Origin: a virus
Lineage: Duplodnaviria > Caudoviricetes
IMG/VR virus record: IMGVR_UViG_3300027608_000010
Length of the DNA stretch: 64,000 nucleotides
Strand: one strand, 5' to 3'
Shown: piece by piece, positions 441-24,043 of the stretch
How the letters are laid out: every line of letters begins with the position of its first letter
Numbering within the stretch: position 1 is the first letter of the stretch
The notes under the pieces: generated by a model
The model's input: the letters and a program-made list of their open reading frames with translations, nothing else
Told to the model about the DNA's origin: nothing
Databases searched by the model: none
Program-made: the position numbers and the translations under genes

Positions 441-515
441 TGGTCCGGCGTACAGGAATCGAACCCATATTCACGGTGTAGAAGACCGCTGTATTATCCG
501 TTATACTAACGCCGG
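441..515 (-). tRNA. trnR: tRNA-Arg(TCT)
   Basis: Acceptor CCGGCGT/ACGCCGG, anticodon arm GCGGT-CTTCTAC-ACCGT, GGTTCGATTCC T-arm, encoded CCA. Confidence 0.9.
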
Positions 516-524
516 AAAATTTGT

Positions 525-716
525 TTAGGCTAAGGATTGTCTGAAAACTGCTAATTCTGCATCAGTGAGAATTAGTTCCAGTTTGTTTTGTTTTGCTGAT
601 GGGTCTCTTGCCCAATCATATACTGTATAGATATGTACGTAGTTGCTACCCTCTGGTATATCTAACTTGCGTGTTTCACAAAATAGTTTATAACCTGCGT
701 TTTCACTAACTAACAT
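525..716 (-). CDS. hypothetical protein, 63 aa, within the tRNA array
   Basis: ORF with GGAG RBS, filling the gap between tRNA-Asn and tRNA-Arg. Confidence 0.65.
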   Translation of the reverse strand: MLVSENAGYKLFCETRKLDIPEGSNYVHIYTVYDWARDPSAKQNKLELILTDAELAVFRQSLA

Positions 717-735
717 ACTTACTCCATAAAATGTT

Positions 736-811
736 TGGCTCCACAGCCTGGGCTCGAACCAGGGACCAATTGATTAACAGTCAACTACTCTACCGACTGA
801 GCTACTGCGGA
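736..811 (-). tRNA. trnN: tRNA-Asn(GTT)
   Basis: TCCGCAG/CTGTGGA acceptor, GTTGA-CTGTTAA-TCAAT anticodon arm, CCA. Confidence 0.95.
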
Positions 812-821
812 ATGAATTACT

Positions 822-896
822 TGGTGCCGAATGTCTGGTTCGAACAGACGACCTATCGCTTACAAGGCGATTGCACTACCACTGTGCTAATTCGGC
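822..896 (-). tRNA. trnT: tRNA-Thr(TGT)
   Basis: GCCGAAT/ATTCGGC acceptor, ATCGC-CTTGTAA-GCGAT anticodon arm, CCA. Confidence 0.95.
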
Positions 897-914
897 ATAT
901 TTTTATTTAACTGA

Positions 915-957
915 AGTATATCACAGGGAAACTTTTCTGTCAAGTCCCCTGTGATAT
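915..957 (-). promoter_or_regulatory. sigma70-type promoter embedded in an 11-bp inverted repeat
   Basis: TTGACA(938-943)-17 bp-TATACT(915-920); ATATCACAGGG (918-928) and CCCTGTGATAT (947-957) form a perfect inverted repeat. Confidence 0.65.
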
Positions 958-959
958 TT

Positions 960-1520
960 TTACGACAATAAGATTCTACTGTGCTTTGGAACACCTGCAA
1001 GCAAGTAGTCCATTTGATCCGAAAGTATGTTGCGTTGTTGTAGAATCATGTTTTCATAGTGATTTGGTGCGTATGGGATGTACAACAATTCTAGACCACA
1101 TTCTTTTAACAGTTTGTGACCCTTCTTTGCGTTACAGTCCTTACATGCAGTAACCACATTCATCCAAGTGTTTTCACCACCTCGGCTCTTAGGCAGAATG
1201 TGGTCACGACTTAGATTATTATAATTGGGGAAATGTCCACCACAGTATGCACACACATATCGGTCACGACCGAATAGTGTACGGTTGCTTAGTGCAACGT
1301 TGGCATGCTTGTGTGGATTGAAACCATGACCCTTGATAGCAATTATGCTAGTAGTTTCTAGGTAACTCATTTCACCGTCATTTTGTACACCACCACGATA
1401 CTTAGCTACAACTTCTCCTAATGCCCATGCAATTGCATTCTTTGCATGGTAGGTAATTGCGTCATCGTATGAGATCCACTGTCGGGGAACTCCTGAGATA
1501 TCTAGTGCTAGAACAGCCAT
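960..1520 (-). CDS. HNH endonuclease (McrA/HNH_5-like)
   Basis: RDRYVCAYCG, SRDHILPKSRGG and NVVTACKDCNAKKG: Zn-finger plus HNH motif. Confidence 0.92.
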   Translation of the reverse strand: MAVLALDISGVPRQWISYDDAITYHAKNAIAWALGEVVAKYRGGVQNDGEMSYLETTSIIAIKGHGFNPHKHANVALSNRTLFGRDRYVCAYCGGHFPNYNNLSRDHILPKSRGGENTWMNVVTACKDCNAKKGHKLLKECGLELLYIPYAPNHYENMILQQRNILSDQMDYLLAGVPKHSRILLS

Positions 1521-1566
1521 TTTCTACTCCTTTGTTGCTATTGTCACTATAACTATTTAACTAGTT

Positions 1567-1642
1567 TGGAGGGTCGTAGAGGAATTGAACCCCTGACATC
1601 TTGGTTCGAAGCCAAGTACTCTATCCACTGAGTTAACGACCC
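1567..1642 (-). tRNA. trnR: tRNA-Arg(TCG)
   Basis: GGGTCGT/ACGACCC acceptor, CTTGG-CTTCGAA-CCAAG anticodon arm, CCA. Confidence 0.93.
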
Positions 1643-1645
1643 ATT

Positions 1646-1674
1646 ACTATAACAGATAATTGAATTACTGTCAA
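1646..1674 (-). promoter_or_regulatory. sigma70-type promoter directly upstream of tRNA-Arg(TCG)
   Basis: TTGACA-17 bp-TATAGT ending 3 nt before the tRNA 5' end. Confidence 0.6.
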
Positions 1675-1686
1675 TTATTTGTTGGC

Positions 1687-1717
1687 AAAAGAAATCCCGC
1701 ACTGTGCGGGATTTTTA
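1687..1717 (-). terminator. intrinsic terminator (potentially bidirectional)
   Basis: 10-bp stem AAATCCCGCA/TGCGGGATTT with T-rich tails on both strands, just after the stop of the 1730-2209 ORF. Confidence 0.8.
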
Positions 1718-1729
1718 AATGGTGAAAAA

Positions 1730-2209
1730 TTATTTTTTATAAAGCGGGCCGCGCCGATTATACGCATCCCAATTTTGTCCGTTACTAGTTAAACGATATT
1801 CTTCCCAATTTTCCCAATCAAATGCAGTATCTTCAGGAGCTCTATAATCACAATCTACGATTTCACTGCCTGTTTTGGTTGCTAAAACAGAAGAACTAAA
1901 ATTTTGTAAAAACCAGTCAAGTTGAGATTGATTATAAAATAATACAAATATAATAGCCGAGTCACTACCTACACCCTCAAGATGATGGCTATATATTAAT
2001 CCAGTTTCAGAGACAGCAGCCATAACAATTGGAAATTCAGTTTGATGTGGATTAGCTAGTCCCATATCTACTTGACTTTTATAATATTGTCGATGTCGAT
2101 TAAAATCTTCTATTGTTACGAGTTTTACTCCTTCAGTATTTAAGAAATCCTTATTCAATGATAATGAGGAATAAAGTACTAATTTTTTAGTGTAAATCCA
2201 TTCTTGCAT
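1730..2209 (-). CDS. hypothetical protein, about 159 aa
   Basis: ORF track 1730-2260; the GGAGA RBS favours ATG at 2209 (MQEWIY); no recognised motif. Confidence 0.7.
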   Translation of the reverse strand: MQEWIYTKKLVLYSSLSLNKDFLNTEGVKLVTIEDFNRHRQYYKSQVDMGLANPHQTEFPIVMAAVSETGLIYSHHLEGVGSDSAIIFVLFYNQSQLDWFLQNFSSSVLATKTGSEIVDCDYRAPEDTAFDWENWEEYRLTSNGQNWDAYNRRGPLYKK

Positions 2210-2248
2210 ATAAATTCTCCGTATATTTAATATACTATTTATCTTAAT

Positions 2249-2335
2249 TGGTACCCCCACTGAGATTTGAACTCAGATATCTTTTAAGATGCTCCCTTTT
2301 GAGGAGAGTGACTTTACCAATTTGTCTATAGGGGC
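2249..2335 (-). tRNA. trnL: tRNA-Leu(CAA)
   Basis: CTCTC-CTCAAAA-GGGAG anticodon arm, long variable arm, CCA. Confidence 0.92.
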
Positions 2336-2340
2336 ATTAA

Positions 2341-2416
2341 TGGTACCAAGAGTTGGGATCGAACCAACCACACCCGATTCTTCAGACCGGTGCTCTACCA
2401 ACTGAGCTATCTTGGC
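2341..2416 (-). tRNA. trnF: tRNA-Phe(GAA)
   Basis: GCCAAGA/TCTTGGT acceptor, CCGGT-CTGAAGA-ATCGG anticodon arm, CCA. Confidence 0.95.
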
Positions 2417-2422
2417 ATTGTT

Positions 2423-2498
2423 TGGGGAGTTACACGGGGAACGATCCCGTACTACCAGTTTCACAGACTAGGGTGCGAACCTCTACACTAGTAACTCC
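2423..2498 (-). tRNA. trnH: tRNA-His(GTG)
   Basis: 8-bp acceptor GGAGTTAC/GTAACTCC with encoded G-1, CTAGT-CTGTGAA-ACTGG anticodon arm, CCA. Confidence 0.92.
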
Positions 2499-2510
2499 AT
2501 AGAAAAGAAC

Positions 2511-2564
2511 AGGATGCTTATTTTTCAATTAAAAGTTGAATTTTTTATTTGCTGAACGCATCCT
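2511..2564 (-). ncRNA. mini tRNA-Lys(UUU) anticodon-mimic RNA, copy 1 (putative)
   Basis: AGGATGC-GTTCAGCAAATAAAAAA-TTCAA-CTTTTAA-TTGAA-AAATAA-GCATCCT: 7-bp closing stem, 5-bp stem with a CUUUUAA loop, no D or T arm, no CCA. Confidence 0.6.
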
Positions 2565-2569
2565 AAAAG

Positions 2570-2647
2570 TGGTCTGGGTAGGAGGATTTGAACCTCCAGC
2601 CTCCGAGTTCCAAGCCCGGCCGTCTACCAAGTTGACAATATACCCAG
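2570..2647 (-). tRNA. trnP: tRNA-Pro(TGG)
   Basis: CTGGGTA/TACCCAG acceptor, CCGGG-CTTGGAA-CTCGG anticodon arm, CCA. Confidence 0.94.
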
Positions 2648-2654
2648 TTATTTT

Positions 2655-2746
2655 TGGCGGAAGACAGAGGAGTCGAACCCCATCCCTGTTAAGAGAACCT
2701 GGTTTTCAAGGCCAGTCGGCGGACCATCCCACCTGCATTATCTTCC
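2655..2746 (-). tRNA. trnS: tRNA-Ser(TGA)
   Basis: GGAAGAT/GTCTTCC acceptor, CTTGAAA loop, long variable arm, CCA; C31-A39 mismatch. Confidence 0.92.
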
Positions 2747-2752
2747 ATTGTT

Positions 2753-2827
2753 TGGTGGACCGTAAGAGGATCGAACTCTTACTTCCGAGTTGCAAGCCCG
2801 GTGTGCTCCCATTATCACTAACAGCCC
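2753..2827 (-). tRNA. trnA: tRNA-Ala(TGC)
   Basis: GGGCTGT/ACGGTCC acceptor with the G3:U70 Ala determinant, CTTGCAA loop, CCA. Confidence 0.95.
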
Positions 2828-2837
2828 ATGAATAAGT

Positions 2838-2978
2838 TTTCGGGAACTAATTCGGTGTACACTTGAATTAGTTTGTCTCGTATACAAGAGTTTATCGACC
2901 TTTATAATCTACTGGTGTGTCACACATGCCGCCATGTGCTAGATTACAAGGGACTCAATCATATCGTCTATCCCGAAA
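2838..2978 (-). ncRNA. unidentified multi-branched structured RNA of about 140 nt between tRNA-Ile and tRNA-Ala
   Basis: Closing stem TTTCGGGA/TCCCGAAA; internal helices TGTAATCTA/TAGATTATA, GCACATG/CATGTGT, CTTG/CGAG and AACTAATTC/GAATTAGTT; G:U pairs favour the minus strand. Confidence 0.55.
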
Positions 2979-2980
2979 TT

Positions 2981-3055
2981 TGGTAGCCAATGATGGGAAC
3001 GATCCATCGACCCCCGCCTTATCAAGACGGTGCTCTACCACTGAGCTAATTGGCC
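2981..3055 (-). tRNA. trnI: tRNA-Ile(GAT)
   Basis: GGCCAAT/ATTGGCT acceptor, CCGTC-TTGATAA-GGCGG anticodon arm, CCA. Confidence 0.95.
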
Positions 3056-3063
3056 AAATTGTT

Positions 3064-3139
3064 TGGTAGTTGAGGTCGGACTCGAACCGACGATAGATAC
3101 CGTATGAAGGTATTGCATTAGCCACTATGCTACTCAACC
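3064..3139 (-). tRNA. tRNA with CAT anticodon (elongator Met or lysidine-modified Ile2)
   Basis: GGTTGAG/CTCAACT acceptor, ATACC-TTCATAC-GGTAT anticodon arm, CCA; lacks initiator features (no C1:A72 mismatch, no 3 G-C pairs). Confidence 0.88.
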
Positions 3140-3140
3140 A

Positions 3141-3210
3141 TATAAAAACACATTCTAGGGTAGTCGTACAACATACCCCCAGCCCCGGGAGCCGCGAATG
3201 TGTTTTTATA
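3141..3210 (-). ncRNA. long-stem structured RNA wedged exactly between tRNA-Thr(GGT) and tRNA-CAT
   Basis: Perfect 15-bp inverted repeat TATAAAAACACATTC/GAATGTGTTTTTATA (19 bp including the flanking tRNA ends) around a 40-nt GC-rich core. Confidence 0.55.
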
Positions 3211-3285
3211 TGGTGCTGATGGCGGGATTTGAACCCACGACCTCTTTCTTACCAAGAAAGTACACTACCACTGTGTTACATCAGC
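3211..3285 (-). tRNA. trnT: tRNA-Thr(GGT)
   Basis: GCTGATG acceptor 5' strand, CTTTC-TTGGTAA-GAAAG anticodon arm, CCA. Confidence 0.94.
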
Positions 3286-3289
3286 TAAT

Positions 3290-3366
3290 TGGTGCGACCG
3301 GAGAGATTCGAACTCCCGACTCCTAAGTTCGTAGCCTAGTACTCTATCCAACTGAGTTACGGTCGC
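3290..3366 (-). tRNA. trnR: tRNA-Arg(ACG)
   Basis: GCGACCG/CGGTCGC acceptor, CTAGG-CTACGAA-CTTAG anticodon arm, CCA. Confidence 0.95.
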
Positions 3367-3376
3367 ATTATAAAAC

Positions 3377-3433
3377 AGGATAGCATCTTTTTTCATTAAA
3401 AGTGAAATTGGATTTGTTTGCTGTTGCTATCCT
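3377..3433 (-). ncRNA. mini tRNA-Lys(UUU) anticodon-mimic RNA, copy 2 (putative)
   Basis: AGGATAGC-AACAGCAAACAAATCCAA-TTTCA-CTTTTAA-TGAAA-AAAGAT-GCTATCCT; same architecture as 2511-2564 with different stem sequences. Confidence 0.6.
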
Positions 3434-3438
3434 AAAAC

Positions 3439-3515
3439 TGGCATCCTGTACGGGATTCGAACCCGTGATCTCCTACTTGAAAGGCAAGCGTTCTAGGCCT
3501 CTAAACTAACAGGAT
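3439..3515 (-). tRNA. trnE: tRNA-Glu(TTC)
   Basis: ATCCTGT/ACAGGAT acceptor, CTTGC-CTTTCAA-GTAGG anticodon arm, CCA. Confidence 0.92.
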
Positions 3516-3522
3516 ATAAATT

Positions 3523-3596
3523 TGGCAGAGGGTACTGGGTTCGAACCAGTGATAACAGAGTCAAAGTCTGTGGTGTTACCGCTACACTAACCCCCA
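3523..3596 (-). tRNA. trnQ: tRNA-Gln(TTG)
   Basis: ACAGA-CTTTGAC-TCTGT anticodon arm, GGTTCGAACCC T-arm, CCA. Confidence 0.92.
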
Positions 3597-20731: not shown

Positions 20732-21272
20732 TTATAAAAATATCCAAGTTAGGATTCCATACATTTAGATTAAGAATAATTCTAGGTGAATATCCTATAT
20801 TGCAAGCACCATGCCATTCATTATTATCTTCAAATTGGTAAATATTGCCTTTTTTCCATCCTGTGATAGATGTTTCTCCCCAAATAAATACATGACCATT
20901 TTGGTAGTCTTGCAACGGCATCCAGTATTTTTTACTGATAAGATCAGGTTCGTCACTATCTAAGTGCATAGGCATTACATCGCCGGGTAATAGTTTAACA
21001 AATCGCCATTCAATGTCATCTTCATTTTCTGAAAATTTCAAATTAAACGGAACATTTGTTTTATTAAATACACGATAATGTATTTTAGAAAAATCATAAC
21101 CACCATTCAATGCACGTTCACATGAGATTGGTCCGCAGTAATTAACCATTCCTTGTATACGACTTTTTTGATCTGTTCCGTAATCTCTTGGCAAGCACCA
21201 GCCATCGTTACTTAACATGCAGTCAATCCATTCTTGTTTAATCCAATCGCTATAATTTCCTATTAATTTCAT
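20718..21272 (-). CDS. 2OG-Fe(II) oxygenase-like protein
   Basis: KLLPGDVMPMHLD...WHGACNIG..RIILNL. Confidence 0.72.
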   Translation of the reverse strand: MKLIGNYSDWIKQEWIDCMLSNDGWCLPRDYGTDQKSRIQGMVNYCGPISCERALNGGYDFSKIHYRVFNKTNVPFNLKFSENEDDIEWRFVKLLPGDVMPMHLDSDEPDLISKKYWMPLQDYQNGHVFIWGETSITGWKKGNIYQFEDNNEWHGACNIGYSPRIILNLNVWNPNLDIFINGIS

Positions 21273-22078
21273 TAATAATTCTCCAAATGTTCTATTCCCA
21301 GTTTCTTACGAAAATGCTCAGTGAATTTGCCATCGATGCGTAAGCTATAACTCTGCTCTATAATCTTTTCGCCGCCGTGCCAATCATTATCATTCCACCA
21401 TGCCGCTCTTGTATTTAGATATGTTTTATTATTTGATTCAGGGTCCCACAAGTAAAATGCTTTCTTTGTATTAGGACGTATATGTATGAATTCATTACGA
21501 TGATCAAATGTGACATTCATTCCGTTCTTAGCGTCTAAGTCTCTGTGTTCAAAGGGTATACCGTCGGCCTCACAGTGAAAAAATATAACTCTACCGATAT
21601 GTTCAAAGATACCATCAGTGATAGTTTTTTCTACCCATTTAACTACATTAGGAAAGTATTCTGCTTCTTCTGTTAGTTTACGTTCAGCGGTTCTATTATC
21701 CCAACTTCCTTCTTCCCAGAGATAGTAATAGATATAAGGATCATATGCACCCATAGCCATTTTTAAAAAACGTGTAAACTTATTACGTTCTTTAAAGTCT
21801 TTGAAGTCGGCCGGCATTAGTTTCATTCCGGCTTGCTTAATGAGATTGTCTTCAGGTAGTGCCATAAACTCATTCATTGCTTCATAGATGGGTTTCCAGT
21901 TAATACGATAACTCATGTTTTCAAATGTAAACCCAGGAGCCATCCAAGTACCTTCTTTGGCAAATTCTCTTGCTACTGCAAACCCTGTAATGATTTCAGG
22001 TTGTAGTCTTTCAAATTCAGACATATCTAAATATTGTTCCATATTATAGTATGGATTGTTGTTTATACCAATCATCAT
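21272..22078 (-). CDS. 2OG-Fe(II) oxygenase-like (cupin) protein
   Basis: GRVIFF...PFEHRD...DWHGG...SLRIDG. Confidence 0.6.
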   Translation of the reverse strand: MMIGINNNPYYNMEQYLDMSEFERLQPEIITGFAVAREFAKEGTWMAPGFTFENMSYRINWKPIYEAMNEFMALPEDNLIKQAGMKLMPADFKDFKERNKFTRFLKMAMGAYDPYIYYYLWEEGSWDNRTAERKLTEEAEYFPNVVKWVEKTITDGIFEHIGRVIFFHCEADGIPFEHRDLDAKNGMNVTFDHRNEFIHIRPNTKKAFYLWDPESNNKTYLNTRAAWWNDNDWHGGEKIIEQSYSLRIDGKFTEHFRKKLGIEHLENY

Positions 22079-22863: not shown

Positions 22864-23927
22864 ACTGGTAGTTTAAAATCTTTTATTCCAGCCAAGTCAA
22901 TATAGTATTTAATTTCGTCTTCATATAACTTAGCTGTTGGTTCATGTAAATATGGTTGCCAAAATCCATCTTGTAGATTACTATAATCGTGCTGAACACG
23001 ATAACATAATCTATTTTTAATATCACCCAGTCTACGATGCAATGTTATGCTGTTATCAAACAAACAGAAATCATTGTTACTTTGATACCAGTGGTCATAT
23101 ATGTATTTGTCAACGAACAATTCTTTGTTTATTTCAGCAAATACACTATCACTTTCTTCTGGTGTCATCCCCTTGATGCGGTAGATAGTATTAGCACTAT
23201 AATGTAATCCAATAATCCCGCCAGGACTTCGCATGACAATTGGAATCTCCATATCATCTTCAGGGCACATATTGGCATGCATGACTTCGTCCTGTTCCAT
23301 ACGTAAGCCAGGATTAATACGTCCAGGAGTAAATCTATGTAACAGAATCATTTCATCTAATTCACTTCGAAATGCGTTGCTAACATTCTCATAATAATCC
23401 GGCGTAGTTATAAATCCAGTACTAGAGCCAATCATATTTTCTGCACCTAGTAACGCAACACCCGGTGTAAATGTTAATGTTCCGCTTTCGTTGCTATGCC
23501 ATAATAATTCACCTTCTGCAAACATTCCTAAGGCATTACCTTTTTCGTCACGTTTGCCGGTAACCCGCATAACATGCTTCCCGTCGGATGTTATTTCTTG
23601 CATGTTGACAATACTTTTTAATCTAATGCGATCAATCTCATCGACACTTGGATCATCTTGCATAGCTAATCTTGCTATCTGAGTAAATGTCTTTCCTGGA
23701 TATTTCTTAAGGATTAGATAACGAACTCCGTATCTAGTGTCTCCAAACTGTGTGCAAAAATCTGTTTGTTTATCCCACGACAGGTTACAATCACGTATTA
23801 TGGTTACGAAATTTTGTAAGTGTAGTTTACCAATCTCTATCCATTCTTCATTAGTAATAGTAGTGAAATCAACATCGTCAATGAAGATTCCGAATCGTCC
23901 TAGTCCTGGTATTTTGCTAATTTTCAT
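22860..23927 (-). CDS. TauD/TfdA-family 2OG-dependent dioxygenase
   Basis: LLWHSNE...GSSTGF...FDNSITLHRR. Confidence 0.82.
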   Translation of the reverse strand: MKISKIPGLGRFGIFIDDVDFTTITNEEWIEIGKLHLQNFVTIIRDCNLSWDKQTDFCTQFGDTRYGVRYLILKKYPGKTFTQIARLAMQDDPSVDEIDRIRLKSIVNMQEITSDGKHVMRVTGKRDEKGNALGMFAEGELLWHSNESGTLTFTPGVALLGAENMIGSSTGFITTPDYYENVSNAFRSELDEMILLHRFTPGRINPGLRMEQDEVMHANMCPEDDMEIPIVMRSPGGIIGLHYSANTIYRIKGMTPEESDSVFAEINKELFVDKYIYDHWYQSNNDFCLFDNSITLHRRLGDIKNRLCYRVQHDYSNLQDGFWQPYLHEPTAKLYEDEIKYYIDLAGIKDFKLPV

Positions 23928-24043
23928 AAATATTGTCTTCCTATATCAAATCTCTTTTGTAATTTGAAATACCTAAAATGGTATATACGTTTGAAGTTGA
24001 ATGTAAATCCAAACACATGCTTATCGTTTGTGAACGAGATCAT
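23924..24043 (-). CDS. aromatic-rich 39-aa peptide (MISFTNDKHVFGFTFNFKRIYHFRYFKLQKRFDIGRQYL)
   Basis: Hand-translated; ATGA overlap with the upstream radical SAM stop and with the downstream TauD start; fills the gap exactly. Confidence 0.5.
   Translation of the reverse strand: MISFTNDKHVFGFTFNFKRIYHFRYFKLQKRFDIGRQYL

Follow-up and report, generated by a model that had tools for sequence, protein, structure and literature searches.

The 39-aa open reading frame (ORF) between a radical SAM gene and a TauD-like oxygenase gene of a large freshwater phage is, to judge by the codons of its homologues, a real gene. It belongs to a previously undescribed family of ~40-residue microproteins of such phages and forms a two-gene cassette with the TauD-like gene (Table 1), whose product it probably controls or assists. 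The window, that is, the whole stretch of 64,000 nucleotides analysed here, belongs to a phage genome that carries 15 tRNAs as well as nrdA/nrdB, and an island in which radical SAM and oxygenase genes are gathered. The sequencing runs that contain it are lake metagenomes, and related contigs imply genomes of ∼350 kb (200,843 bp scored as 57% complete). The tRNA genes form an array on the minus strand (441-3596), within which lies an HNH endonuclease gene (960-1520). On the same strand, 21272-22078 encodes a conserved 268-aa protein whose H-x-D and distal His motifs resemble those of a 2OG-type oxygenase; Pfam and NCBIfam gave no match for this protein.

Table 1. Features of the peptide locus in the window
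Feature	Position	Strand	Basis or remark
39-aa microprotein gene	23924..24043	−	Homologues and codon data; family of 38-44 aa
Final seven codons and stop of the peptide	23924..23947	−	Tail under selection and likely TauD Shine-Dalgarno (putative role)
ATGA overlap of radical SAM stop and peptide start	24040..24043	−	Sequence
TauD-fold Fe(II)/2-oxoglutarate oxygenase-like gene, 355 aa	22860..23927	−	Constant partner of the peptide
Radical SAM gene with N-terminal HMPTM/Tes-type Zn ribbon, 347 aa	24040..25083	−	Local upstream neighbour only

The translation of the ORF given by a sequence-only reading of the window was reproduced, as were its composition (8 Phe, 3 Tyr and 2 His) and the ATGA overlaps at both ends, visible as TCAT on the plus strand at 24040-24043 and, where the peptide stop overlaps the TauD start, at 23924-23927. 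Eleven F/Y/W residues in 39 are equalled in 0.4% of 39-aa segments of the window's long ORFs, and the peptide is basic (8 K/R versus 2 D/E). Its N/D/H/Y content is not unusual, as 35% of background segments equal it, and a queuosine-codon sensor was rejected on this ground. As ATGA overlaps are the default gene junction in these phages, the exact fit of the ORF to its gap is not special on its own; −4 overlaps were found, for example, in 4/4 cases between the desaturase gene (des) and the 268-aa gene and in 4/4 between the radical SAM gene and the peptide. When the gap was shuffled, the needed frame was open in 3.1% of trials, and in ∼1% when a frame match was also required. Promoter-like sites at the locus were below chance level.

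Pattern and profile searches starting from IMG/VR TauD loci yielded 22 distinct intact DNA copies (the window's included), one frameshifted copy and further proteins, all members of one 50% cluster. The intact peptides are 38-44 aa long, mostly 40, basic and aromatic, without Cys and almost without Pro, and end in a near-invariant DIGRQYL; their frame is the only one that is stop-free in all 21 copies checked. Among the homologues synonymous change is saturated (dS above 1) and dN/dS is ∼0.17 over the last 20 codons, indicating a selected coding sequence; these values are pooled pairwise Nei-Gojobori estimates from pairs that are not independent. Conservation with dN/dS below 1 was the test that the sequence-only reading had itself set for the hidden ORF, and selection at the amino-acid level makes it more than the coupling spacer that had been offered as an alternative. 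Selection is strongest over the final seven codons (dN/dS 0.03, versus 0.28 and 0.19 further up, the latter for the N-terminal part). The Asp, Gln and terminal Leu codons of the tail vary only synonymously, as does the Tyr codon in 20 of 21 copies, and the terminal Leu is retained even in L104, although the TauD start thereby becomes GTG. A neutral translational-coupling spacer, whose amino-acid sequence would be irrelevant, would explain why the gap is filled with overlaps at both ends; it is refuted by these codon data, and we give it next to no credence.

Part of the tail conservation reflects a Shine-Dalgarno constraint on Gly-Arg: the Gly codon is solely GGA or GGG, which would be expected of a codon that also serves in the TauD Shine-Dalgarno, and the following codon is mostly AGA or AGG. 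The N-terminal half is conserved as well, with alternating strand-and-turn patterns, conserved N-D and Gly turn positions and conservative aromatic swaps in which F, W, Y and L interchange. The frameshifted copy (P0017; L110, 529-657) has lost its tail and reads into the TauD start; either decay or a homopolymer error may account for this. With the GQYL tail of the actinobacterial proteasome activators Mpa and PafE the peptides share their final three residues, QYL, but Arg replaces Gly in all intact copies and proteasome-tail mimicry was unsupported. There was also no sign of an actinobacterial host, as WhiB was found in 0 of 32 related records, which are partial.

Searches of Pfam, PHROGs, NCBIfam, PDB sequences, the ESM Atlas, GenBank phages and GTDB genomes gave no match to the peptide, nor did those of Pfam, NCBIfam and PHROG link it to a described leader family, and no description of it was found in literature searches. 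Apart from the representative of the family itself, the full profile search returned only one 194-aa protein, matched over a 17-residue stretch and probably for compositional reasons; a longer or fused form was not found, which is weak evidence. For a homologue, AlphaFold2 gave a single long helix, an uninformative model (pLDDT 71, pTM 0.32). Among the RNA runs, which consist of contigs, one 165-nt metatranscriptome contig spans the ORF, in the form of the intact L079 variant; it bridges neither junction and is no proof of transcription. The junction with TauD shows no conserved RNA structure (consensus fold −0.56 kcal/mol, 4 pairs) and no hairpin or Rho-loading spacer, and a programmed frameshift fusion there was rejected, as no slippery sequence is conserved.

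In 21 of the 22 copies the next gene is a TauD-like oxygenase with a −4 overlap (20 ATGA, 1 GTGA), and this adjacency holds over a TauD identity range of 45-95% and in eight or more unrelated genomic contexts. The proposed link to the oxygenase is thus borne out, and the two genes are shown to form a cassette. The fixed overlap by itself is not diagnostic, because −4 overlaps are usual in these phages. The exception, L092, is an intact peptide coupled to the 268-aa island gene with no adjacent TauD. On the upstream side, the Zn-ribbon radical SAM gene directly precedes only 6 of the 22 copies; other neighbours are a nuclease (presumably Mre11/gp47-like, from its motifs), nrdA, a desaturase, another radical SAM, two unknown proteins, a divergent junction and tRNA-Asp. 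The peptide start shares a −4 overlap with the upstream gene in 16 of 22 copies, involving several unrelated genes. The pair lies directly behind nrdA in L087, and in L089 (238-1696) nothing but the pair is inserted in a tRNA array, in the order Tyr, Asp, cassette, Trp; no Shine-Dalgarno is visible for the peptide there. Other island gene pairs keep together in ∼35-90% of cases (for example, 10/15, 7/11 and 7/8). Behind the peptide in L097 (6001-8308) are two tandem TauD paralogues, the first strongly diverged, with a long branch and altered residues after H-x-N-E.

The sequence-only reading had set the upstream enzyme beside radical SAM/SPASM maturases and proposed the peptide as a candidate precursor for cyclophane (triceptide-type) cross-linking. 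Cyclophane maturases have SPASM or twitch domains (PMC11851443). The upstream enzyme, which is Tes/MJ0619-like, has Radical_SAM and Zn_ribbon_HMPTM as its only Pfam domains; as it carries neither a SPASM nor a twitch domain, it does not qualify as such a maturase. Just two conserved Cys follow its CxxxCxxC motif, and its best matches, TrsS and Tes, lie far below their cut-offs. Nor do the genes travel together: the radical SAM gene occurs without the peptide in L070-L072, and in L083 and L087, which have the peptide, the 5 kb to each side of it contain no radical SAM motif. The recurrence of the radical SAM-peptide junction in six copies would suit cross-linking, as would conserved F-x-N, H-x-R and Y-x-K patterns in the peptide. 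However, aromatic-x-x motifs are expected from its content of ∼25% aromatic and 18% K/R residues, and the aromatic residues interchange. The resemblance to triceptide and cyclophane RiPPs (PMC11851443) is that of a small aromatic-rich peptide beside a radical SAM gene; here, by contrast, the enzyme is of the Tes/MJ0619 Zn-ribbon type and does not co-travel with the peptide. On present evidence, as far as these sequences tell, the peptide is not a radical SAM RiPP precursor. That reading is very improbable and, like the neutral spacer, largely excluded.

Two further observations concern these radical SAM enzymes. The short Tes/MJ0619-like enzyme lacks auxiliary-cluster cysteines, and L071 (2968-5068) has two such genes in tandem. 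At residues ∼236-239 the radical SAM protein reads D/A-I-G-R, the same four letters as in the peptide tail, with I, G and R invariant in 8 homologues; there is no profile match, and the likeness is probably chance.

The model of the TauD-like protein (pLDDT 90) matched TauD and AAD-type dioxygenases, and its closest solved folds, E. coli TauD (1GY9) and AAD-1/2 (5BK9/5BKE), are small-molecule dioxygenases of the same fold (TM by target ∼0.77). Unlike in the TauD/TfdA family, the Asp of the H-x-D motif is replaced by Asn (Asn146), with an invariant adjoining Glu; H144-x-N146-E147, H297, R306 and R310 are invariant in 41/41 sequences of the phage TauD-like family. Judged from this alignment, H-x-N-E is an atypical iron site, of which a single literature search gave no description. 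The 'taurine catabolism dioxygenase' proteins of cyanophages P-HM1, P-HM2 and MED4-213 are 44-47% identical to the phage TauD-like protein; these three were among the GenBank phages in which tblastn with the peptide gave no match.

The dependence within the cassette is shown to run one way, of the peptide on TauD and not vice versa. Among IMG/VR TauD loci, 59 of 61 are without the peptide, 92%-identical alleles among them, and 2 have a homologue; the peptide is thus not required for TauD. When 40 records were searched with a profile, the peptide was recovered only in four already known carriers and nowhere else in the 36 records without a junction copy, most of them fragments (2-59% complete); three near-complete records have distant TauD alleles and no peptide. 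Peptide-less TauD genes have their own AGGAG or start near TAAATA. In four of them (L005, L025, L032 and L033) the start lies a few bases after TAAATA with no Shine-Dalgarno, which suggests leaderless transcripts. In a quick TauD tree, peptide-bearing and peptide-less alleles intermingle, and well-supported branches force a minimum of 7 changes between the two states, which could reflect repeated loss or allele exchange. Peptide and TauD distances were uncorrelated (Mantel rho 0.04, p 0.31, at the low power of 36 residues), and no TauD alignment column convincingly separated alleles with and without the peptide. The candidate K340, found in 11/17 peptide-linked and 3/36 other alleles, was discarded because sister pairs were inconsistent. 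One TauD copy (L051, 2170-3230) is split by a frameshift.

One-way dependence on TauD, together with purifying selection along the full length of the peptide, the conserved N-D and Gly turns, the F/W/Y/L interchange and the near absence of Pro, would suit a small trans-acting accessory protein that stabilises, localises or inhibits the TauD-like enzyme, for example as a β-hairpin or meander docking via its C-terminal tail. The conserved strand-and-turn pattern suits such a small folded partner, a reading that comes close behind the leader model in fit and is a serious although doubtful possibility. The many TauD loci without the peptide, close alleles included, argue against it, as do the lack of co-divergence with TauD and of convincing specificity columns and, weakly, the lack of a fused form. 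We consider it quite unlikely that the peptide is instead a RiPP-like substrate of the oxygenase, hydroxylated on its tail at Asp, Arg, Gln or Tyr. In keeping with this would be the close linkage of the two genes and the near-invariance of the seven C-terminal residues, and the unusual iron site leaves the chemistry of the enzyme open. Nonetheless, its status as a substrate is doubtful because ∼95% of close TauD relatives are without a neighbouring peptide, and none was found elsewhere in the searched records. Of the features expected of a 2OG-oxygenase RiPP, the linkage of peptide to oxygenase was found (21/22), but a precursor beside the orthologues was found in only 2/61. Moreover, the peptide has no leader/core split and no acidic leader (1-4 D/E), and the closest solved folds act on small molecules.

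A microprotein with its own, unrelated host or phage target might also be kept before TauD since its 3′ end supplies the ribosome-binding site. The Shine-Dalgarno inside its last codons, the intact copy in L092 and the absence of co-divergence are compatible with this. However, an independent small gene should often stand alone, whereas lone copies number 1 of 22, other island pairs stay together in ∼35-90% of cases and the 36 other records have no copy; we regard such a target as improbable.

The explanation that we tentatively favour is a cis-acting leader, in which the last codons carry the TauD Shine-Dalgarno and the conserved tail tunes termination and reinitiation. The peptide would be translated, usually coupled to whichever gene lies upstream, as its conserved starts and 16/22 ATGA overlaps suggest. 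The sole purine-rich candidate for a TauD ribosome-binding site appears to sit in these last codons; because of this, and because the peptide stop overlaps the TauD start, TauD would be made by termination-reinitiation. During termination, the DIGRQYL tail might occupy the exit tunnel and peptidyl-transferase centre and act in cis on the ribosome. Its conserved residues could then set how frequently release and restart occur, perhaps with a metabolite as signal, and thereby adjust how much oxygenase is made. The peptide would represent an optional 5′ control module, for which other TauD alleles swap in an ordinary Shine-Dalgarno or a leaderless start. The stalling and regulation in this model are hypothetical, and its more specific form, a metabolite-sensing phage nascent peptide that gates reinitiation at a stop-start overlap without an RNA switch and thereby controls an H-x-N-E oxygenase, is unlikely.

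Several observations fit a leader: the same −4 position before TauD across so many settings; the concentration of selection in the tail, down to the Leu kept in L104; and a length fixed at 38-44 aa, near the span of the ribosome exit tunnel. The peptide-less TauD genes with their own start signals and the lack of co-divergence fit as well, and absence away from the junction is expected of an element that is useless once separated, with the caveat that most searched records are fragments and the Mantel test has low power. Against a leader, −4 overlaps are too common here to discriminate, neither a conserved hairpin in the mRNA nor a spacer, as used by known leaders, is present, the conserved N-terminal half with its strand-and-turn pattern suits a folded mini-domain, and the intact L092 copy precedes a different gene.

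Whichever of these holds, what was an easily missed 120-base gap now stands for a microprotein family that is defined, under selection, narrow in distribution and paired with a single clear partner, and a false RiPP lead has been removed. The family offers a short, cheap route to the function and control of widespread, uncharacterised phage TauD-like oxygenases. If the peptide works in cis, it would stand as a rare case of a phage leader that operates at a stop-start overlap and needs no RNA switch; should the enzyme bind or modify it, an oxygenase of this atypical iron site would gain a first partner or substrate.

Among known systems, the leader model most resembles ligand-sensing arrest or leader peptides that stall at their own stop codon, such as TnaC, SpeFL and the conserved-peptide uORFs of plants. 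The features shared with such leaders are a small peptide-coding gene placed immediately 5′ of a single enzyme gene, a conservation peak at the C-terminus, richness in aromatic and basic residues and a length near that of the exit tunnel. In contrast to those leaders, the peptide described here is phage-encoded and has neither a spacer nor a conserved hairpin before the enzyme gene; given the overlap of its stop with the TauD start, any stalling could act solely by blocking or gating reinitiation.
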